A DNA stretch of 64,000 bases, taken from the IMG/VR virus record IMGVR_UViG_2511231131_000001; one strand, given 5' to 3'. Below, piece after piece: positions 44,815-50,932 of the stretch; position 1 is the first letter of the stretch, and each line of letters begins with the position of its first letter. Under the pieces are notes generated by a model, which was not told where the DNA came from, did not search any database, and saw nothing but the letters and a program-made list of their open reading frames with translations. The position numbers and the translations under genes were made by a program. This DNA comes from a virus (lineage: Duplodnaviria > Heunggongvirae > Uroviricota > Caudoviricetes).

Positions 44815-44974
44815 GTATTTTTAAGTCACGAATGCTATCTTTTCGCATCATATTGACCTTTTAATCGTTCAGGCTTATAGTTCCGCCGTCGTAGCAAATT
44901 CTGCGACCGGGTTTAGCAGCCTGAATGATTGTGCGGACAGCCGCAGATATCCGATATTGCGGTATTTTTGTGTC

Positions 44975-45060
44975 CGTAAAACCGCGTTACGCCCAAATTA
45001 TGGTGGGGCGTGATGGGGAGGCTTCGGCCTGCTGGTTTCACAATCGCCAGTCTGCTAACC
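44975..45060 (+). ncRNA. c4: Putative c4-like antisense RNA region of immI (approximate bounds)
   Basis: Located between the operator and icd; contains TCACAATC (45038-45045) complementary to GATTGTGA (45111-45118) just upstream of the icd RBS. Confidence 0.3.
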
Positions 45061-45128
45061 CCGTCACGTCCTGCCACCTGTTTAGCAGCGGGTAGCAGGT
45101 TGTTAAACCTGATTGTGAGGCCGTAACT

Positions 45129-45350: not shown

Positions 45351-46390
45351 AAAAACCTCTCGTCACCCGTAATGACATAGCCGAAGCGATCGCCCTGCAT
45401 ACTGCCTGTATACCGACACGGGAGATCCCCGGCGCAATTGCCAACTATTTCATGATAACCAGGCGTTTTTATACCCGAACAGATAAGGCTGTGATCAACA
45501 GGCTACTGATAGCCGAGATCAGGGATTATTTGATTGAACAAGGACGTCTACGTTACGCAACGGTGGCAGCAGAAATGAGAAAGGAGGCACATAGAATGAC
45601 CAGTAATAATTTGAATGTTAAAAAACCAGCACCTGTTGCTTCAGCAACGCCAGCACCAGCCGTGAATGTCATCCCCACCACCGGAGACACAATCGACAGC
45701 CTGACACTGTTAAAGATGGTCAATGAAGCGCGTAAGTTATGTGGGGAACCAGAGGTTCGGAACAACAAATTCATCGAAAAAATACTCGACGAATTAGAAG
45801 GTGAGGACGGTTACACAAAAAGTGCAACCGTGCCGCCAGGTGGCGGTACGCCTATGGTTGTCATAACCATGACCTACAAACAAGCCCTGCGAGTCGCCGC
45901 GCGCGAATCGAAAGCGGTCCGCCGTTCGCTGATCGACAAACTGGAAGAATTGCAGCAGGCAAACTCCCCTACCCCATCGATCCCCCAAACATTACCAGAA
46001 GCCCTACGCCTGGCTGCCGAGTTGGCAGAACAGAAATTGCAGCTGGAACAACAGCTGGTGGCCGCAGCCCCTAAAGTCGATTTTGCCGACCGGGTATCAG
46101 TGGCTAATGGAATCCTGATCGGGAACTTTGCAAAGGTCGTTGGACTTAAGCAAAACGCCCTTTTCTCATGGTTGCGCCAGAACGGCATTCTCATGGCTTT
46201 TGGTGCGCGCAAAAACGTACCGCGCCAGCAGTACATTAACGCCGGGTATTTCACGGTGAAAGAAGTGGTGCTGGATGATGAAAATGGCTACCAGATACGG
46301 CTGACGCCCCAATTAACGGGTAAAGGCCAGCAGTGGTTAACTCGCAAGCTACTTGATGCTGGTTTGTTAAAACCAGTAGCAATAGGTTAA
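45347..46390 (+). CDS. ant1: Antirepressor Ant
   Basis: 347 aa; C-terminal region shares an extended motif with KilA (PEALRLAAELAEQK...YFT.KE...LT.KGQ.WL..LLDAG); immI position. Confidence 0.7.
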   Translation: MKKPLVTRNDIAEAIALHTACIPTREIPGAIANYFMITRRFYTRTDKAVINRLLIAEIRDYLIEQGRLRYATVAAEMRKEAHRMTSNNLNVKKPAPVASATPAPAVNVIPTTGDTIDSLTLLKMVNEARKLCGEPEVRNNKFIEKILDELEGEDGYTKSATVPPGGGTPMVVITMTYKQALRVAARESKAVRRSLIDKLEELQQANSPTPSIPQTLPEALRLAAELAEQKLQLEQQLVAAAPKVDFADRVSVANGILIGNFAKVVGLKQNALFSWLRQNGILMAFGARKNVPRQQYINAGYFTVKEVVLDDENGYQIRLTPQLTGKGQQWLTRKLLDAGLLKPVAIG

Positions 46391-46401
46391 CAAAAGAAAA
46401 A

Positions 46402-46423
46402 ACCTGCCAGCAAACTGGCAGGT
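46402..46423 (+). terminator. Rho-independent terminator after ant (ACCTGCCAG-caaa-CTGGCAGGT then TTCT)
   Basis: 9-bp stem. Confidence 0.6.
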
Positions 46424-46457
46424 TTCTGAGCAGATCGACCAACCCGATCTGGATCGA

Positions 46458-46474
46458 GTCAGAAAAATTTGCTC
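46458..46474 (+). promoter_or_regulatory. C1 operator-like site (TTTGCTCTAATAAATTT, 16/17) upstream of kilA (Op53 position)
   Basis: Match to the C1 operator consensus. Confidence 0.6.
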
Positions 46475-46553
46475 TAATAAATTTCGTTTTCTAAGTGCAA
46501 AGAATCACCATTTCGAGCTGGTGATTGAAGGTTGATGCAAATTTGGAGAAAAA

Positions 46554-47354
46554 ATGCAACAAACATTCAATGCGGATATGAATATATCAAACCTTCATCA
46601 AAATGTCGATCCTTCAACCACTCTGCCTGTTATTTGTGGTGTTGAAATTACGACCGACCGCGCTGGCCGTTACAACCTTAATGCTCTACACAGAGCGAGC
46701 GGACTCGGTGCCCATAAAGCGCCAGCTCAATGGCTAAGAACGCTGTCAGCCAAACAGCTCATCGAAGAGCTTGAAAAAGAAACTATGCAGAATTGCATAG
46801 TTTCGTTCGAAGGCCGTGGCGGCGGCACTTTTGCCCATGAATTGCTCGCTGTGGAGTACGCAGGCTGGATTTCTCCCGCGTTTCGGCTGAAGGTAAACCA
46901 GACATTTATCGACTATCGAGCCGGAAGATTACAACCTGCTATTCCGCAGAGTCTCCCTGAAGCTCTCCGTTTGGCTGCCGACCTGGCAGAGCAAAAGCAA
47001 CGGCTGGAGCAAAAAATGCTTATGGATGCACCTAAAGTCGAATTCGCCGAACGCGTTGCTACCGCCAGCGGGGTTCTAATCGGCAACTATGCCAAAGTGC
47101 TCGGTCTGGGCCAAAACTATCTCTTCACCTGGTTGCGTGATAACGGAATTCTGATCGCAACCGGTGAACGCAGGAACGTCCCCAAACAAGAATACATATC
47201 CCGTGGGTATTTCACCCTTAAAGAAACCGTGATCGATACAAGCAATGGAAGCAGGATTTCTTTCACGACTCGTATAACCGGCAAAGGTCAGAAGTGGCTG
47301 ATGAAGCGATTGCTTGATGCTGGTGTGCTGGTACCTGTCGCGGCAACGCGCTAA
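46554..47354 (+). CDS. kilA: KilA (KilA-N domain protein)
   Basis: 266 aa; C-terminus homologous to the Ant C-terminus; precedes repL as in P1. Confidence 0.7.
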   Translation: MQQTFNADMNISNLHQNVDPSTTLPVICGVEITTDRAGRYNLNALHRASGLGAHKAPAQWLRTLSAKQLIEELEKETMQNCIVSFEGRGGGTFAHELLAVEYAGWISPAFRLKVNQTFIDYRAGRLQPAIPQSLPEALRLAADLAEQKQRLEQKMLMDAPKVEFAERVATASGVLIGNYAKVLGLGQNYLFTWLRDNGILIATGERRNVPKQEYISRGYFTLKETVIDTSNGSRISFTTRITGKGQKWLMKRLLDAGVLVPVAATR

Positions 47355-47383
47355 CAGACGTAGTAAGAACCACCAGCATTGTA

Positions 47384-48229
47384 ATGCTGGCTAAAGTCAC
47401 TTTCCTGAGCTGTATAACGATGAGCGATTTTACTTTTTCTGGCTATGAATTGGCCTGCTTTGTAACACACTCCGGTCTATCCCGTAGCGCCGGGCATATC
47501 CTGTCGCAATGTGCAAATCTAGCGGCAACAACCAGTGAATACTTCATTCACAAGCCTCACCGCCTGATCGCGGCAGAAACTGGTTATAGCCAATCAACCG
47601 TCGTTCGTGCATTCCGTGAAGCTGTAAACAAAGGAATTCTGTCTGTAGAGATTGTTATCGGCGATCACCATGAACGTCGCGCTAACCTGTACCGGTTTAC
47701 ACCATCCTTTTTGGCCTTCGCACAACAAGCCAAAAATGCGCTGATTGAAAGCAAATTAAAGATCTCTTCAGCGGCAACCAAGGTTAAAGCTGTTCTCGCT
47801 AAGACATTGGCTTTATTTAATTTTTTATCCACACCCCCATGTCAAAATGATACCCCCTCCCCCTGTCAGGATGACGTGGCAATAAAGAATAAGAAGTCAC
47901 AAGTTAAAAAAACAAAAAGATCAGTTTCCGGCGGTGCCGGAACGAGCAGACTCAAAAAATTGACTTCATGGATCGCTGAGGCAAAAGCAAAGGCTGACAA
48001 TCTGCGGTTATCCAAAAAACGCGCTCAAAAACATGAGTTCAAGCAGAAAGTAGAGGCGGCAGCGCGGAAATATGCTTACCTGAAGAACAAGCGTTCTCCT
48101 GATATTGGCGGGGTATCAAACTTCGATAATTTGCCGCATTGCATGACGGTAAACGAAGCTCTTAATGCGATTTTAGCCAAAAATAAAGATAACGAAAAAT
48201 GGGGTATACCGGCAGGATTCAGGGGGTGA
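47384..48229 (+). CDS. repL: RepL lytic replication initiator
   Basis: 281 aa, downstream of kilA under the same C1-controlled promoter; size and position match P1 RepL. Confidence 0.7.
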   Translation: MLAKVTFLSCITMSDFTFSGYELACFVTHSGLSRSAGHILSQCANLAATTSEYFIHKPHRLIAAETGYSQSTVVRAFREAVNKGILSVEIVIGDHHERRANLYRFTPSFLAFAQQAKNALIESKLKISSAATKVKAVLAKTLALFNFLSTPPCQNDTPSPCQDDVAIKNKKSQVKKTKRSVSGGAGTSRLKKLTSWIAEAKAKADNLRLSKKRAQKHEFKQKVEAAARKYAYLKNKRSPDIGGVSNFDNLPHCMTVNEALNAILAKNKDNEKWGIPAGFRG

Positions 48230-48279
48230 TAGATTGCTCTAATCTGGAGTCACCTGGCGTTTTCAGTTTGAGGTCGGAG

Positions 48280-48525
48280 ATGCAATCTGATTTTTTACAG
48301 TTAGCGATCGCTTTTGCAGGATATGTTTGTATTGGCTTCTGTGTATACATGATCAGCCGAAAAATGCTTGTCGATATCGACCGCAAAGAACGAGCAGAGG
48401 AGATCTTAGTATGGATTTTCTTTGGCGCGGTCTGGCCATTAGGGATCATGTTTGCTGCAACATTTCTTCTGATGTGGATATTCACCCTTCCAGGTGATTT
48501 CTATAGAAAAAAAGCCAGACATTGA
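48280..48525 (+). CDS. Small membrane protein
   Basis: About 81 aa with two hydrophobic segments (LAIAFAGYVCIGFCVYMI; VWIFFGAVWPLGIMFAATFLLMWIF). Confidence 0.4.
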   Translation: MQSDFLQLAIAFAGYVCIGFCVYMISRKMLVDIDRKERAEEILVWIFFGAVWPLGIMFAATFLLMWIFTLPGDFYRKKARH

Positions 48526-48584
48526 TACAATCGTTGCGGGTGCTTGAGGCTATCTGCTTCAGGCATTACCCGAAAAGCAGATAG

Positions 48585-48655
48585 AAGAAAGCCCCAGATA
48601 ACATTACGCGTCCTGCAAGACGCTTAACATTAATCTGAGGCCATATCTATGCTTA
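48585..48655 (-). ncRNA. sok: Putative Sok-like antisense RNA region (approximate), opposite the mok translation initiation region
   Basis: Inferred from hok/sok family architecture; boundaries not determined from sequence. Confidence 0.25.
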
Positions 48656-48855
48656 GCATACGTAGATTAGCCTCTTACCGACCAAAAGGTCAAGGAGAAG
48701 CAGGCTATGAAGCAGCAAAAAGCGATGTTAATCGCTCTGATCGTCATCTGTTTAACCGTCATTGTGACGGCACTGGTAACGAGGAAAGACCTCTGCGAGG
48801 TACGAATCCGAACCGGCCAGACGGAGGTCACTGTCTTCACAGCCTACGAATCTGA
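48649..48855 (+). CDS. mok: Mok-like overlapping reading frame
   Basis: 68-aa ORF overlapping hok in another frame and ending near the hok stop. Confidence 0.5.
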   Translation: MLSIRRLASYRPKGQGEAGYEAAKSDVNRSDRHLFNRHCDGTGNEERPLRGTNPNRPDGGHCLHSLRI

Positions 48856-48862
48856 AAGGTAA
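48707..48862 (+). CDS. hok: Hok/Gef-family type I toxin
   Basis: 51 aa MKQQKAMLIALIVICLTVIVTALVTRKDLCEVRIRTGQTEVTVFTAYESER; N-terminal TM helix and conserved LTR..LCE.R....EV..F.AYES signature. Confidence 0.85.
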   Translation: MKQQKAMLIALIVICLTVIVTALVTRKDLCEVRIRTGQTEVTVFTAYESER

Positions 48863-48940
48863 GAGACCTGGCGGGGAGAGATCCTCGCCACTCTTCGTGT
48901 GTCAGGTATCCTCAATGCACCCTTTCCTCTCCAAATAAAA

Positions 48941-48958
48941 AAGCTCCCGAAGGAGCTT
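48941..48958 (-). terminator. Rho-independent terminator (AAGCTCC-cgaa-GGAGCTT) with U-run on the minus strand, after the structural gene ending at 48979
   Basis: 7-bp stem; T-run on the minus-strand side. Confidence 0.6.
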
Positions 48959-48978
48959 TAAAATACAAGGGATGACTC

Positions 48979-49488
48979 TTAATCCCACTCAATCCAGTTG
49001 TAGACGATACGAAGTGACGGGCGCACAGCGGCAGTCACATCTTCGGTACTAAAGTCGATTGCATCACTGTAGATTTTGCAGTCCAACATTTCAATTGTTG
49101 TAGCAGCTTTTGTCACAGCGTTAACCCCGGAAGATTTGGATTCAGGGGTAGCAGCCATCGTGATATCAACATAGTCCTTCGCCGCAATGCGATCCTTGAT
49201 GAACTGAAGAATATCGCCTTCGATAGTCTCCACGCACTGGACCTGGATTTCCCCAGAGTTTCGAATTGGTCCGTGCTGGTTGAACTTCACACCATTCGGA
49301 CCATAGTCCTCCACATCCTCGCGGGTCATTTCAGGAATTTGCGACGTGCGAACCAGTACGCTGATATCTTCATGGCCTGCAAAAGTGAGCTGGAATTCAG
49401 AAGATACCAGTCGTTCGCCTTTGGCCGCGTTGGCAGTATAGCGGCCCTTAATAAATTTACGGTTTCCCTTAGTGTTATTGTGCCCCAT
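48979..49488 (-). CDS. Putative tail/baseplate structural protein
   Basis: 169-aa ORF in the late structural cluster. Confidence 0.45.
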   Translation of the reverse strand: MGHNNTKGNRKFIKGRYTANAAKGERLVSSEFQLTFAGHEDISVLVRTSQIPEMTREDVEDYGPNGVKFNQHGPIRNSGEIQVQCVETIEGDILQFIKDRIAAKDYVDITMAATPESKSSGVNAVTKAATTIEMLDCKIYSDAIDFSTEDVTAAVRPSLRIVYNWIEWD

Positions 49489-49499
49489 ATAAAATCCTT

Positions 49500-50081
49500 T
49501 TACTGGAACGCCCGAACAATATCGGAGCTGTTATATATCGAAGAACCGGTCAACTGGAGGTTGACGGTGTTTTTCAGGAAATGCCCATTGCTGTCCCTGG
49601 GCGCATCGAGATCGAAACTTATGTCCTGGATAGCGACATCAATGATGTTGATCCGGCGACCAATGTTTAGCGTCACGCGCTCCGGGATTCGACCACCAAT
49701 ACTGGCATCTTTAAGTTCCGGGCTAATCATCGCTGACAATGCGGCGATAGCTCCTGAAACCTCCGTGAATGGGTCAAACAAAGCGATGAAAGTTACTGGC
49801 AGCGTGAAAGTCGGCGGTGTTCCCCCTTCCCAAACCATTAAGCTGTTCCAACGGGCAACCGACGTTGTTTCAGTACCAACCTGCGCAAAACCACTGAAGG
49901 CACCAGCAACAGATCCCATGGACATACCGGTAAACGGCGCTTCCCAATTCTGGGCCATGTTCATTGCCGCCCCCTGGCTGATATATCCGGTAACCTGGTA
50001 CTGAGAGTTCGTTAAAGTAACTTTCAGAAATGGCGATACACCGTCAGCCTGGCTGTAAACCCCATAAGGAATAGGTGCCAT
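49500..50081 (-). CDS. Putative late structural protein
   Basis: 193-aa ORF, same operon. Confidence 0.45.
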   Translation of the reverse strand: MAPIPYGVYSQADGVSPFLKVTLTNSQYQVTGYISQGAAMNMAQNWEAPFTGMSMGSVAGAFSGFAQVGTETTSVARWNSLMVWEGGTPPTFTLPVTFIALFDPFTEVSGAIAALSAMISPELKDASIGGRIPERVTLNIGRRINIIDVAIQDISFDLDAPRDSNGHFLKNTVNLQLTGSSIYNSSDIVRAFQ

Positions 50082-50116
50082 TCAAGTTAAAGGCCGGAGT
50101 TCTCCGGCCTCCTCCT

Positions 50117-50932
50117 TTAGCCAAGGCGCTTACGGCGCAGTTTCATTGACTTTTTGCGGGCAAGTTTTGCCGCGCCGGTCTGGGCTTTTCGACGCGCTTT
50201 TTTCAGCGCCGATTTTTGAGCCGCAGTCAGACGTTTTTTACGCAGGCGTTTACGGATGAGTTTGATCTCACCGTTACGAACAACCTTCTTAAATGCTTCA
50301 GTCAGCATTTCATCAGAAGTGCCAGCAACAACAAACGCCGCTTCTAGTTCGTCGCGGTCGTCGCTATCTAAACCAGCGATAGAGGCACCAACATCAGCAG
50401 CTGCGTCGTCGTCTTCATCGTCAGCCAGTGCTTCGATCAGGTCATCATCTACACCGCATGCTGCGAGGAAGTCAGCAACATTTGCCCATGCTTCGTTATA
50501 GGCATCGTCCTGTTCTTCTGAAACTTCGGAGTCGTCGTCATCAGAGATACCAGCGATAGCCTGAACGAAACCATCAAGGGAGTCGAAAGTCAGATCACCG
50601 CTATCAGCCCAGGCGAAAACGGCGTCGGCCGCATCACTCAACGCATTTTGCATAGCACTTCGATTTGCAGCTTCCAGAATCATCTGGTGCGCCTGTTCGA
50701 CGGTCCATTCTTTACCGTCTTTCCCTTCCAGGATTTGCTCAGGAGCCTGGGCAGATGGAACGTTATCGTTAGTCTGTGCCGCCGGTTCCGGATTATTATT
50801 AATAACCGGATCTGTTGGCGGTTCAGCGCTTGCTCGGGCAGACTCCATCAGCTGCACAGGATCAGAGTTCAAAGCGAAACGAGACAGTCCATTCCCCAAA
50901 AATGCCCCGGATTGAAAAAAGTTTTTGCTCAT
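50117..50932 (-). CDS. Acidic protein with basic C-terminal tail (scaffold-like or tail-associated)
   Basis: 271 aa; Asp/Glu-rich middle and Lys/Arg-rich C-terminus (KKRLTAAQKSALKKARRKAQ). Confidence 0.45.
   Translation of the reverse strand: MSKNFFQSGAFLGNGLSRFALNSDPVQLMESARASAEPPTDPVINNNPEPAAQTNDNVPSAQAPEQILEGKDGKEWTVEQAHQMILEAANRSAMQNALSDAADAVFAWADSGDLTFDSLDGFVQAIAGISDDDDSEVSEEQDDAYNEAWANVADFLAACGVDDDLIEALADDEDDDAAADVGASIAGLDSDDRDELEAAFVVAGTSDEMLTEAFKKVVRNGEIKLIRKRLRKKRLTAAQKSALKKARRKAQTGAAKLARKKSMKLRRKRLG

Follow-up and report, generated by a model that had tools for sequence, protein, structure and literature searches.

The prototype of the hok family of type I toxin-antitoxin modules is hok/sok (parB) of plasmid R1, and the elements of hok mRNAs (tac, ucb, dcb and fbi) are named here as defined in PMC9841398, according to which it is the translation of the overlapping mok frame, not the Mok product, that matters. 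The closest characterised relative of the locus described below is hokW-mokW-sokW of the Stx2 phage Sp5/933W (AF125520), for which the toxicity and inner-membrane localisation of HokW, the antitoxin activity of sokW (a 71-nucleotide RNA) and a partial dependence on RNase III and Hfq have been shown (PMC8621323). We analysed a stretch of 64,000 nucleotides from a Caudoviricetes record (IMG/VR IMGVR_UViG_2511231131_000001; the whole stretch is referred to as the window), which belongs to a P1-like phage-plasmid. Its positions 48504-48922 are best explained, with a probability that we put at roughly 80%, as a type I toxin-antitoxin cassette of the hok/mok/sok kind that is intact and lies in the slot between repL and bplB. 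Over 48526-48922 the nucleotide identity with hokW-mokW-sokW is 87%, 47 of the 51 Hok residues are identical, and every regulatory element of the hok family can be recognised in the sequence, Sok and its promoter as predictions.

Toxin gene, reading frames and boundaries of the cassette

A preliminary description of the window had placed a hok/mok type I module next to repL at 48540-48960, with a 51-residue Hok-family toxin, an overlapping 68-residue mok-like frame, a 5' hairpin with a 10-base-pair stem (CTATCTGCTT / AAGCAGATAG) and a 3' stem-loop. The module is borne out by its matches to Pfam HOK_GEF and Rfam sok, by covariation among related loci and by the pairing of the mRNA ends, and the toxin, the mok frame and the 5' hairpin (stem at 48550-48559 / 48575-48584) were found as proposed. 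As judged from the sequence, the functional unit differs slightly from the proposed interval: it begins at about 48504 if the promoter -35 is counted, or at 48538, where transcription is predicted to start, and its last position is 48922. The mRNA has a 3' hairpin of its own at 48870-48889, but the hairpin at 48940-48959 that ends the proposed interval is P1 backbone. The features of the cassette are as follows.

48504-48531, plus strand: predicted hok promoter (-35 TAGAAA at 48504-48509, 16-nucleotide spacer, extended -10 TGaTACAAT at 48523-48531)
48538-48922, plus strand: predicted full-length hok (mok_hok) mRNA unit, a discrete cassette common to lambdoid and chromosomal hok loci
48538-48549, plus strand: tac element GGGUGCUUGAGG, 5' end of the hok mRNA, pairs with fbi
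48550-48584, plus strand: 5' hairpin, 10-base-pair stem CUAUCUGCUU / AAGCAGAUAG with a 15-nucleotide loop (inverted repeat I1)
48589-48594, plus strand: ucb (anti-Shine-Dalgarno) box AGCCCC, partner of the mok Shine-Dalgarno (SD) sequence in the closed form and of tac in the open form
48637-48640, plus strand: mok SD sequence GAGG, 8 nucleotides upstream of the mok AUG, invariant in the 30-locus alignment
48649-48855, plus strand: mok reading frame, 68 codons, +1 relative to hok, ending 7 nucleotides before the hok stop
48669-48674, plus strand: dcb box AGCCUC, pairs with GAGGC (48637-48641) around the mok SD sequence when the RNA is open and accessible to Sok
48707-48862, plus strand: hok toxin gene, 51 amino acids, MKQQKAMLIALIVICLTVIVTALVTRKDLCEVRIRTGQTEVTVFTAYESER (WP_001313475.1 in relatives)
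48870-48889, plus strand: 3' stem-loop GGCGGGGA-GAGA-UCCUCGCC (helix 14), expected to protect the 3' end of the processed mRNA
48910-48922, plus strand: fbi (fold-back inhibition) element CCUCAAUGCACCC, tac partner
48588-48658, minus strand (about 48658 to 48588): predicted Sok antisense RNA gene, about 71 nucleotides, covering the mok SD sequence and AUG
48664-48693, minus strand: predicted Sok promoter (-35 TTGACC at 48693-48688, 18-nucleotide spacer, -10 TAATCT at 48669-48664)

The homology to hokW/sokW of 933W and to chromosomal hok loci stops abruptly at 48526/48535 on one side and at 48922 on the other, that is, at the mRNA ends. The encoded Hok matches the Pfam family HOK_GEF (PF01848) over residues 6-47 with 78.7 bits against a cut-off of 22 (E = 2.4e-22), and phrog_251 ('MokW-like host killing') with 110.7 bits. 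Its scores lie below the cut-offs of the NCBIfam models NF007279 (Hok family toxin subfamily, 49.5 vs 73 bits) and NF007290 (HokA equivalog, 38.1 vs 89 bits), which we read as a matter of sub-branch and not as evidence against the family, Hok belonging to the HokD/HokW branch and not to those from which the two models were built. HokD-type peptides have been shown to be toxic (preprint 10.1101/2025.08.07.668861).

The mok frame, which matches phrog_37205 (E = 8e-21), is shifted by +1 against hok (58 nucleotides separate the two AUGs), and the shift comes from a single additional T in GGTCAAGG. Among the 30 hok loci that we aligned (see below), mok and hok are in frame and share a stop in 21, so that Mok is there an N-terminally extended Hok, while five loci have mok in the +1 frame and three have a short mok of 19 codons; such variation agrees with the view that the mok product itself is unimportant (PMC9841398). 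The window locus has the overlapping upstream mok frame with an SD sequence of its own by which the family is recognised, and its translation is presumably coupled to that of hok.

The sequence TACGAA at the Tyr47 codon (48845-48850) is invariant in 30/30 hok loci, and a second UACG is found at 48801-48804, within a 12-nucleotide direct repeat (48801-48812). UACG is the A-to-I editing motif of TadA. Recoding of Tyr to Cys at the Tyr47 position has been reported for hokC/D/E-type mRNAs (preprint 10.1101/2025.08.07.668861), and by analogy the full toxicity of the Hok peptide may require TadA editing.

Folding of the hok mRNA

The leader (48538-48712, plus strand) matches the Rfam family sok (RF01794) over the full model (1-157), with 114.9 bits against a gathering threshold of 59 (E = 1.6e-26). 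Since the RF01794 consensus ends in the hok AUG, the model describes the leader in hok-mRNA sense, and Sok is the reverse complement of the middle of the model. The predicted hok promoter came from a promoter scan with 9/12 consensus matches plus the TG; its -10 lies 6 nucleotides upstream of the conserved GGGTGC 5' end, and a TATAAT is equally spaced in Escherichia loci (L018-L023 of our set).

The 423-nucleotide RNA folds with z = -8.4 relative to shuffled sequences, and the minimum free energy fold of the full-length RNA pairs tac with fbi. This duplex comprises 12 base pairs (-19.8 kcal/mol), and 0/307 other 18-mers of the mRNA pair as well. An alignment with R1 hok/sok and chromosomal hok loci, which the preliminary description had named as a check, could be made over the full length of an R1-type locus and yielded covariation. 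The resulting alignment (A1) contains 30 hok mRNAs, including those of the window, 933W, the R1-type IncF locus and loci from Escherichia, Shigella, Kluyvera, Citrobacter, Pantoea and Photorhabdus. RNAalifold applied to A1 recovers the end pairing, the 5' hairpin, the ucb/mok-SD helix (GCCCC at 48590-48594 with GAGG at 48637-48640), a helix sequestering the hok start and the 3' hairpin at 48870-48889. In the consensus structure 95.9% of cells are standard pairs, compared with 36-48% when the partners are slid; compensatory changes occur in 20 pairs and the covariation score was matched by 0/500 shuffles, values that should be read with the caveat that a motif served to choose where each aligned RNA ends on its 3' side and that the structure came from the same alignment as was used for covariation. 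At the level of single helices, the tac/fbi column pair 4/429 shows 11 compensatory U-A to C-G changes, and the 5' hairpin (helix 2) is paired in 99.6% of cells with compensatory change in two pairs. The ucb/mok-SD helix (helix 3, columns 72-77 with 121-127) has 10 compensatory A-U to G-C changes at 77/121. A further conserved long-range helix (helix 5, CUCUUAC/GUAAGAG, 48673-48679 / 48859-48865) is distinct from the ucb and dcb pairings.

The open form, with its tac/ucb and mok SD/dcb stems, is the one encoded in the Rfam covariance model, to which the window aligns cleanly. The Rfam alignment pairs GGG-UGCU of tac with AGCCCC of ucb, by which the 5' hairpin is extended into the 'open' tac stem (48539-48595), and it pairs GAGGC with GCCUC of dcb; GCCTCTT is invariant in the 30-locus alignment.

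The predicted Sok antisense RNA and proposed mechanism

Predicted Sok has a long terminator-like hairpin (-29.3 kcal/mol), followed by CUUUCUUCU, and corresponds position by position to its homologue SokW, which 933W carries as an annotated misc_RNA. Its promoter was placed by alignment to the 933W sokW promoter region (TTGCCT-17-TAACCT).

The dynamics of the switch are inferred from R1 hok/sok (PMC9841398) and Sp5 hokW-sokW (PMC8621323). A stable hok mRNA would begin near 48538 and be locked by tac/fbi pairing, with ucb holding the mok ribosome-binding site. Slow 3' trimming would remove fbi and allow the leader to refold into the tac/ucb and SD/dcb stems, so that mok and, via mok, hok would become translatable. 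As long as the plasmid is present, short-lived Sok would bind the refolded leader over the mok start, leading to a block of translation and to degradation. Once the supply of Sok stops, mok-coupled translation would yield the 51-residue Hok, which would enter the inner membrane and cause cell death.

The repL-bplB slot of the phage-plasmid

The window carries kilA (46554-47354), repL (47384-48229) and bplB (48979-49488, minus strand), as well as pmgG, gp21 and a sheath gene. By blastn, only 46201-48243 and 48937-50400 show backbone homology to reference P1 (NC_005856). The features in and beside the intervening segment are listed below.

48244-48936, 693 base pairs, strand not assigned: segment replacing rlfA-rlfB-pmgF (repL-bplB slot), contains ORF81 and the hok/sok cassette
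48280-48525, plus strand: open reading frame ORF81, an 81-residue predicted membrane protein with 2-3 transmembrane segments, matches phrog_3772
48940-48959, T-run on the minus strand: hairpin AAAGCTCC-CGAA-GGAGCTTT, P1 backbone, terminator-like for bplB

The counterpart of this segment in NC_005856 is 1,826 base pairs with PrlfA, rlfA, rlfB and pmgF, and the preliminary description was right that P1 has no hok here. The repL and bplB flanks are 93-99% identical to NC_005856, and the contents between them vary among P1, SJ46, RCS47, 673R5 and the window, as expected of a slot with conserved borders; among the eight regions in which P1-like phage-plasmids have been described to vary, rlfA/rlfB/pmgF make up variable region 5, whereas phd-doc is core (PMC9603915). 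The left breakpoint lies inside the P1 C1 operator Op55/Orlf (48233-48249), of which the first 11 bases, ATTGCTCTAAT, are retained at 48233-48243 and the last six are swapped (CTGGAG in the window vs TATAAC in P1). C1 may bind the altered operator, and hence ORF81 may be under repressor control. A search for direct repeats flanking the cassette, as insertion marks, gave nothing convincing.

ORF81 has a longer version that starts at ATG 48199 and overlaps the end of repL; residues 28-108 of this version match phrog_3772 (function unknown) with E = 1.7e-53, and searches of ORF81 against Pfam, NCBIfam and PADLOC gave no match. It was seen only in P1-like elements, where it is the first gene in several slot alleles, with a 44% identical homologue in SJ46. 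A terminator-like hairpin at 48482-48497 lies upstream of the cassette. The hairpin at 48940-48959 is outside the cassette because P1 backbone sequence resumes at 48937, and is terminator-like for bplB because of its T-run on the minus strand. The P1 immI region is also found in the window, with the C4 antisense RNA at 44996-45081 (plus strand; Rfam RF01695, 69.6 bits) and the C4 targets a1/b1 at 44875-44927 (plus strand; RF03163, 55.5 bits), and six C1-operator-like sites with at most three mismatches occur at 1957, 15369, 19219, 44798, 46468 and 61423.

Distribution and allele series

The order repL-ORF81-hok-bplB is identical in six phage records, namely phi456, 'Punavirus P1' MH422554 (in which the gene is labelled MokW), MH445380/1 and Ro157c2YLVW (GenBank and RefSeq copies). 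The same arrangement is found in at least 215 PLSDB plasmids among 506 that are repL-positive and in 198 of 5,426 complete E. coli genomes. The intact cassette is 99-100% conserved across these plasmids (at least 215), which come from more than one host and country, and PGAP names its gene hokD (HokD) in the plasmids. This hok locus is thus no rarity but an allele of the slot that is already annotated as HokD or MokW. In plasmid pSA186_4 the slot is 100% identical to the window, which aligns with this plasmid over most of its length at 93-99.97%, and hok occurs there together with phd-doc, parAB and c1. The suggestion that hok is an additional addiction module in such an element therefore fits, the addiction or abortive-infection role itself being conjectural. 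phd-doc was searched for within the 64-kb window and was absent; as the queries had been validated on pSA186_4, it lies outside the window.

In another large set of P1-like plasmids, to which pMCR-1-P3 with its mcr-1 gene belongs, the insertion sequence IS421 (IS4 family) lies inside the hok 3' hairpin with an 11-base-pair target duplication (48874-48884) and separates hok from fbi (pMCR-1-P3, NZ_KX880944, L052 6345-7704). This insertion resembles those of IS186/IS150 beside hokA/C/E on the K-12 chromosome, and the form of the hairpin, GGGG-N6-CC(C)C, also looks like the known target preference of IS186. In SJ46, RCS47 and 673R5, the ORF81-type sequence is followed by the hok leader only, and hok has been lost.

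SJ46 (L053), 2538-2790: toxin-less allele, window-equivalent up to 48669-48672
RCS47 (L054), 3098-3357: toxin-less allele, window-equivalent up to 48669-48672
673R5 (L055), 1601-2170: toxin-less allele, window-equivalent up to 48669-48672

These alleles retain the hok promoter, tac, the full Sok-coding segment, the mok AUG, the Sok -10 TAATCT and a TTGCTC at -35 spacing, and the hok frame is replaced by an unrelated minus-strand gene of 171-210 amino acids that matches no Pfam family. Such an allele may be a mere relic, or it may provide an orphan antitoxin.

In 4,747 of the 5,426 complete E. coli genomes there are sequences with 80-95% identity to the cassette, with a median of two places per genome, mostly chromosomal; in most hosts the Sok and hok of the phage-plasmid will therefore meet related loci, with which they may cross-talk. 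Outside Escherichia, a contig of Kluyvera cryocrescens NBRC 102467 (L006, 337-1353) carries the hok-bplB part (window 48443-49459) at 98.3% identity behind a different upstream sequence, so the allele is not restricted to Escherichia and Salmonella hosts. Short contigs with hok were also seen under two non-enterobacterial names, Acinetobacter idrijaensis (L014, JQCU01000506, 275 base pairs), which is 100% identical to window 48719-48993 with the hok-bplB junction included, and Xanthomonas pisi (L026, 431 base pairs); both are most likely assembly contamination by E. coli or P1-like DNA.

Possible roles of the cassette

We consider the chances to be about even that the cassette serves post-segregational killing, which would stabilise the low-copy plasmid prophage alongside phd-doc. 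The context favours such an addiction role, the carrier being a prophage that lives as a plasmid and that has, as seen in the relative pSA186_4, parAB and c1 besides phd-doc. Several points weigh against an intact, addictive cassette. The hexamers of the Sok promoter are weak and fall below the 9-of-12 threshold of the consensus scan that found the hok promoter. When the RNA without its 3' end, or just the leader, was folded with ViennaRNA, no open tac/ucb form resulted and a local hairpin of tac with 48555-48571 was preferred, which resembles the 'metastable' nascent structure of R1 as described in PMC9841398; because these folds failed to give the open form, it is the Rfam alignment that argues for it. 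IS421-split cassettes occur in roughly as many P1-like plasmids as intact ones, by an estimate from a spread sample of rows and not an exact count, and the many split and toxin-less alleles imply that the intact module is dispensable for P1-like elements. Moreover, this type of element already has phd-doc, chromosomal hok loci have been reported not to mediate post-segregational killing (preprint 10.1101/2025.08.07.668861), and transcription, 3' processing, toxicity and plasmid stabilisation are, for the window locus, predictions from sequence.

The same cassette and switch might instead have been selected for a lytic role, in which Sok would vanish on induction and Hok would damage the membrane early, giving faster lysis and more release. 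In Sp5, sokW RNA disappears after mitomycin C treatment, HokW appears in a RecA-dependent manner and deletion of the locus halves phage release (PMC8621323). The phage genome that carries the window cassette is of a functional type, with genes for tail, sheath and holin, and the cassette comes immediately after the C1-repressed lytic operon kilA-repL (C1 operator at 46468-46484), in the same orientation. However, the extension from Sp5 to P1-like elements is by analogy, P1 has a holin and an endolysin of its own, reference P1 and P7 lyse without hok, the hairpin at 48482-48497 may shield the cassette from repL read-through, and about half of the relatives have an IS421-disrupted copy, and we regard a primarily lytic role as somewhat unlikely. 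It is also conceivable, if quite unlikely, that the cassette is wired for both lifestyles, with Hok firing on plasmid loss and, as a lysis or suicide timer, on prophage induction as in Sp5: kilA-repL read-through after induction would meet the convergent Sok promoter head-on and would yield 5'-extended hok transcripts unable to form the tac/fbi lock. As a corollary, the SJ46, RCS47 and 673R5 alleles could be Sok-only 'anti-addiction' alleles that let a P1-like plasmid displace a hok-bearing incompatible relative.

That the cassette is a selfish or decaying passenger, gained by recombination with lambdoid or chromosomal hok loci and heading to inactivation, would suit much of its distribution: donors are everywhere, because related hok sequences are so widespread in E. 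coli, the homology block (48526/48535-48922) is a discrete unit, IS421 lies between hok and fbi in many relatives, SJ46, RCS47 and 673R5 hold only the leader, and the reported inactivity of chromosomal loci in post-segregational killing points the same way. Yet no element in the window is damaged or out of register, the compensated tac/fbi pairing and the open frames of hok and mok included, and the near identity of the intact allele across plasmids of diverse origin also speaks against decay; we regard a mere passenger as clearly unlikely. Retention mainly for abortive infection or phage exclusion, in which a lytic phage would stop host transcription, Sok would decay and Hok would kill the cell before the burst, seems very unlikely. 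R1 hok/sok on a high-copy plasmid is cited in PMC8621323 as cutting the plating efficiency of T4 by 42% and the size of its plaques by about 85%, and variable slots of phage-plasmids often house accessory or defence cargo; on the other hand, the reported T4 effect was modest and needed high copy number, whereas P1-like plasmids are low-copy, Hok and ORF81 match no PADLOC defence model, and a Hok survey saw no enrichment of hok beside defence systems (preprint 10.1101/2025.08.07.668861). Post-segregational killing by an intact hok/mok/sok cassette is the role that we consider most likely.

The finding is already known, because the family is textbook, the exact protein has a RefSeq accession, hundreds of records give it the right product name, and the slot has been published; in full-text searches of the literature we found no paper explicitly describing hok/sok in the repL-bplB slot of P1, only the variable-region description and database annotations. 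Knowledge of the hok/sok mechanism is unchanged. The value of the finding lies in annotation, as reference P1 misleads at this slot and a large share of natural P1-like phage-plasmids hold hok/sok besides phd-doc. Such phage-plasmids include carriers of mcr-1 and extended-spectrum beta-lactamase genes, and hok/sok could help explain their stable persistence. A modest and testable by-product is the natural series of intact, IS421-split and toxin-less alleles, by which the benefit of hok/sok to a plasmid-living phage may be asked.

Comparison with known systems

Like hokW-mokW-sokW, the window locus has tac, the 5' hairpin, ucb, the mok SD sequence, dcb, the 3' hairpin and fbi in the same order, with a predicted, co-positioned Sok of about 71 nucleotides. 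Both loci are borne by temperate phages, but hokW-sokW by an integrated lambdoid prophage and the present one by a plasmid prophage. In addition, mokW is in frame with hokW (57 nucleotides between the AUGs, same stop), whereas mok of the window is in the +1 frame (58 nucleotides) and ends 7 nucleotides earlier. The 5' single-stranded part of Sok differs from that of sokW at several positions, and cross-neutralisation with sokW is therefore uncertain.

R1 hok/sok has the same architecture and presumably the same mechanism, with tac/fbi and ucb/SD pairing, mok-coupled translation of hok and a cis-antisense Sok, which in the window is predicted. An R1-type locus can be aligned with the window cassette from end to end, and compensatory changes keep its two ends paired, but only 22 of 52 residues of R1 Hok are identical to the window Hok, the 5' hairpin is longer and the middle hairpin shorter in R1, and R1-type loci reside on conjugative IncF plasmids beside psiA.

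The toxin itself is nearly identical to hokD-like chromosomal copies ending in ...AVFTAYEPEE (L007, L008 and L011), and 48 of its 51 residues are identical to K-12 HokD (relF). Pedersen and Gerdes reportedly described in 1999 that hokD of K-12 lies behind relBE and is without the mok/sok regulatory elements. The name HokD thus covers the peptide only, whereas the window locus has the complete regulatory set. With phd-doc of P1 it would share the presumed role, the killing of cells that lose the plasmid prophage, but phd-doc is a type II system acting through protein-protein interaction and is unrelated in sequence and mechanism.

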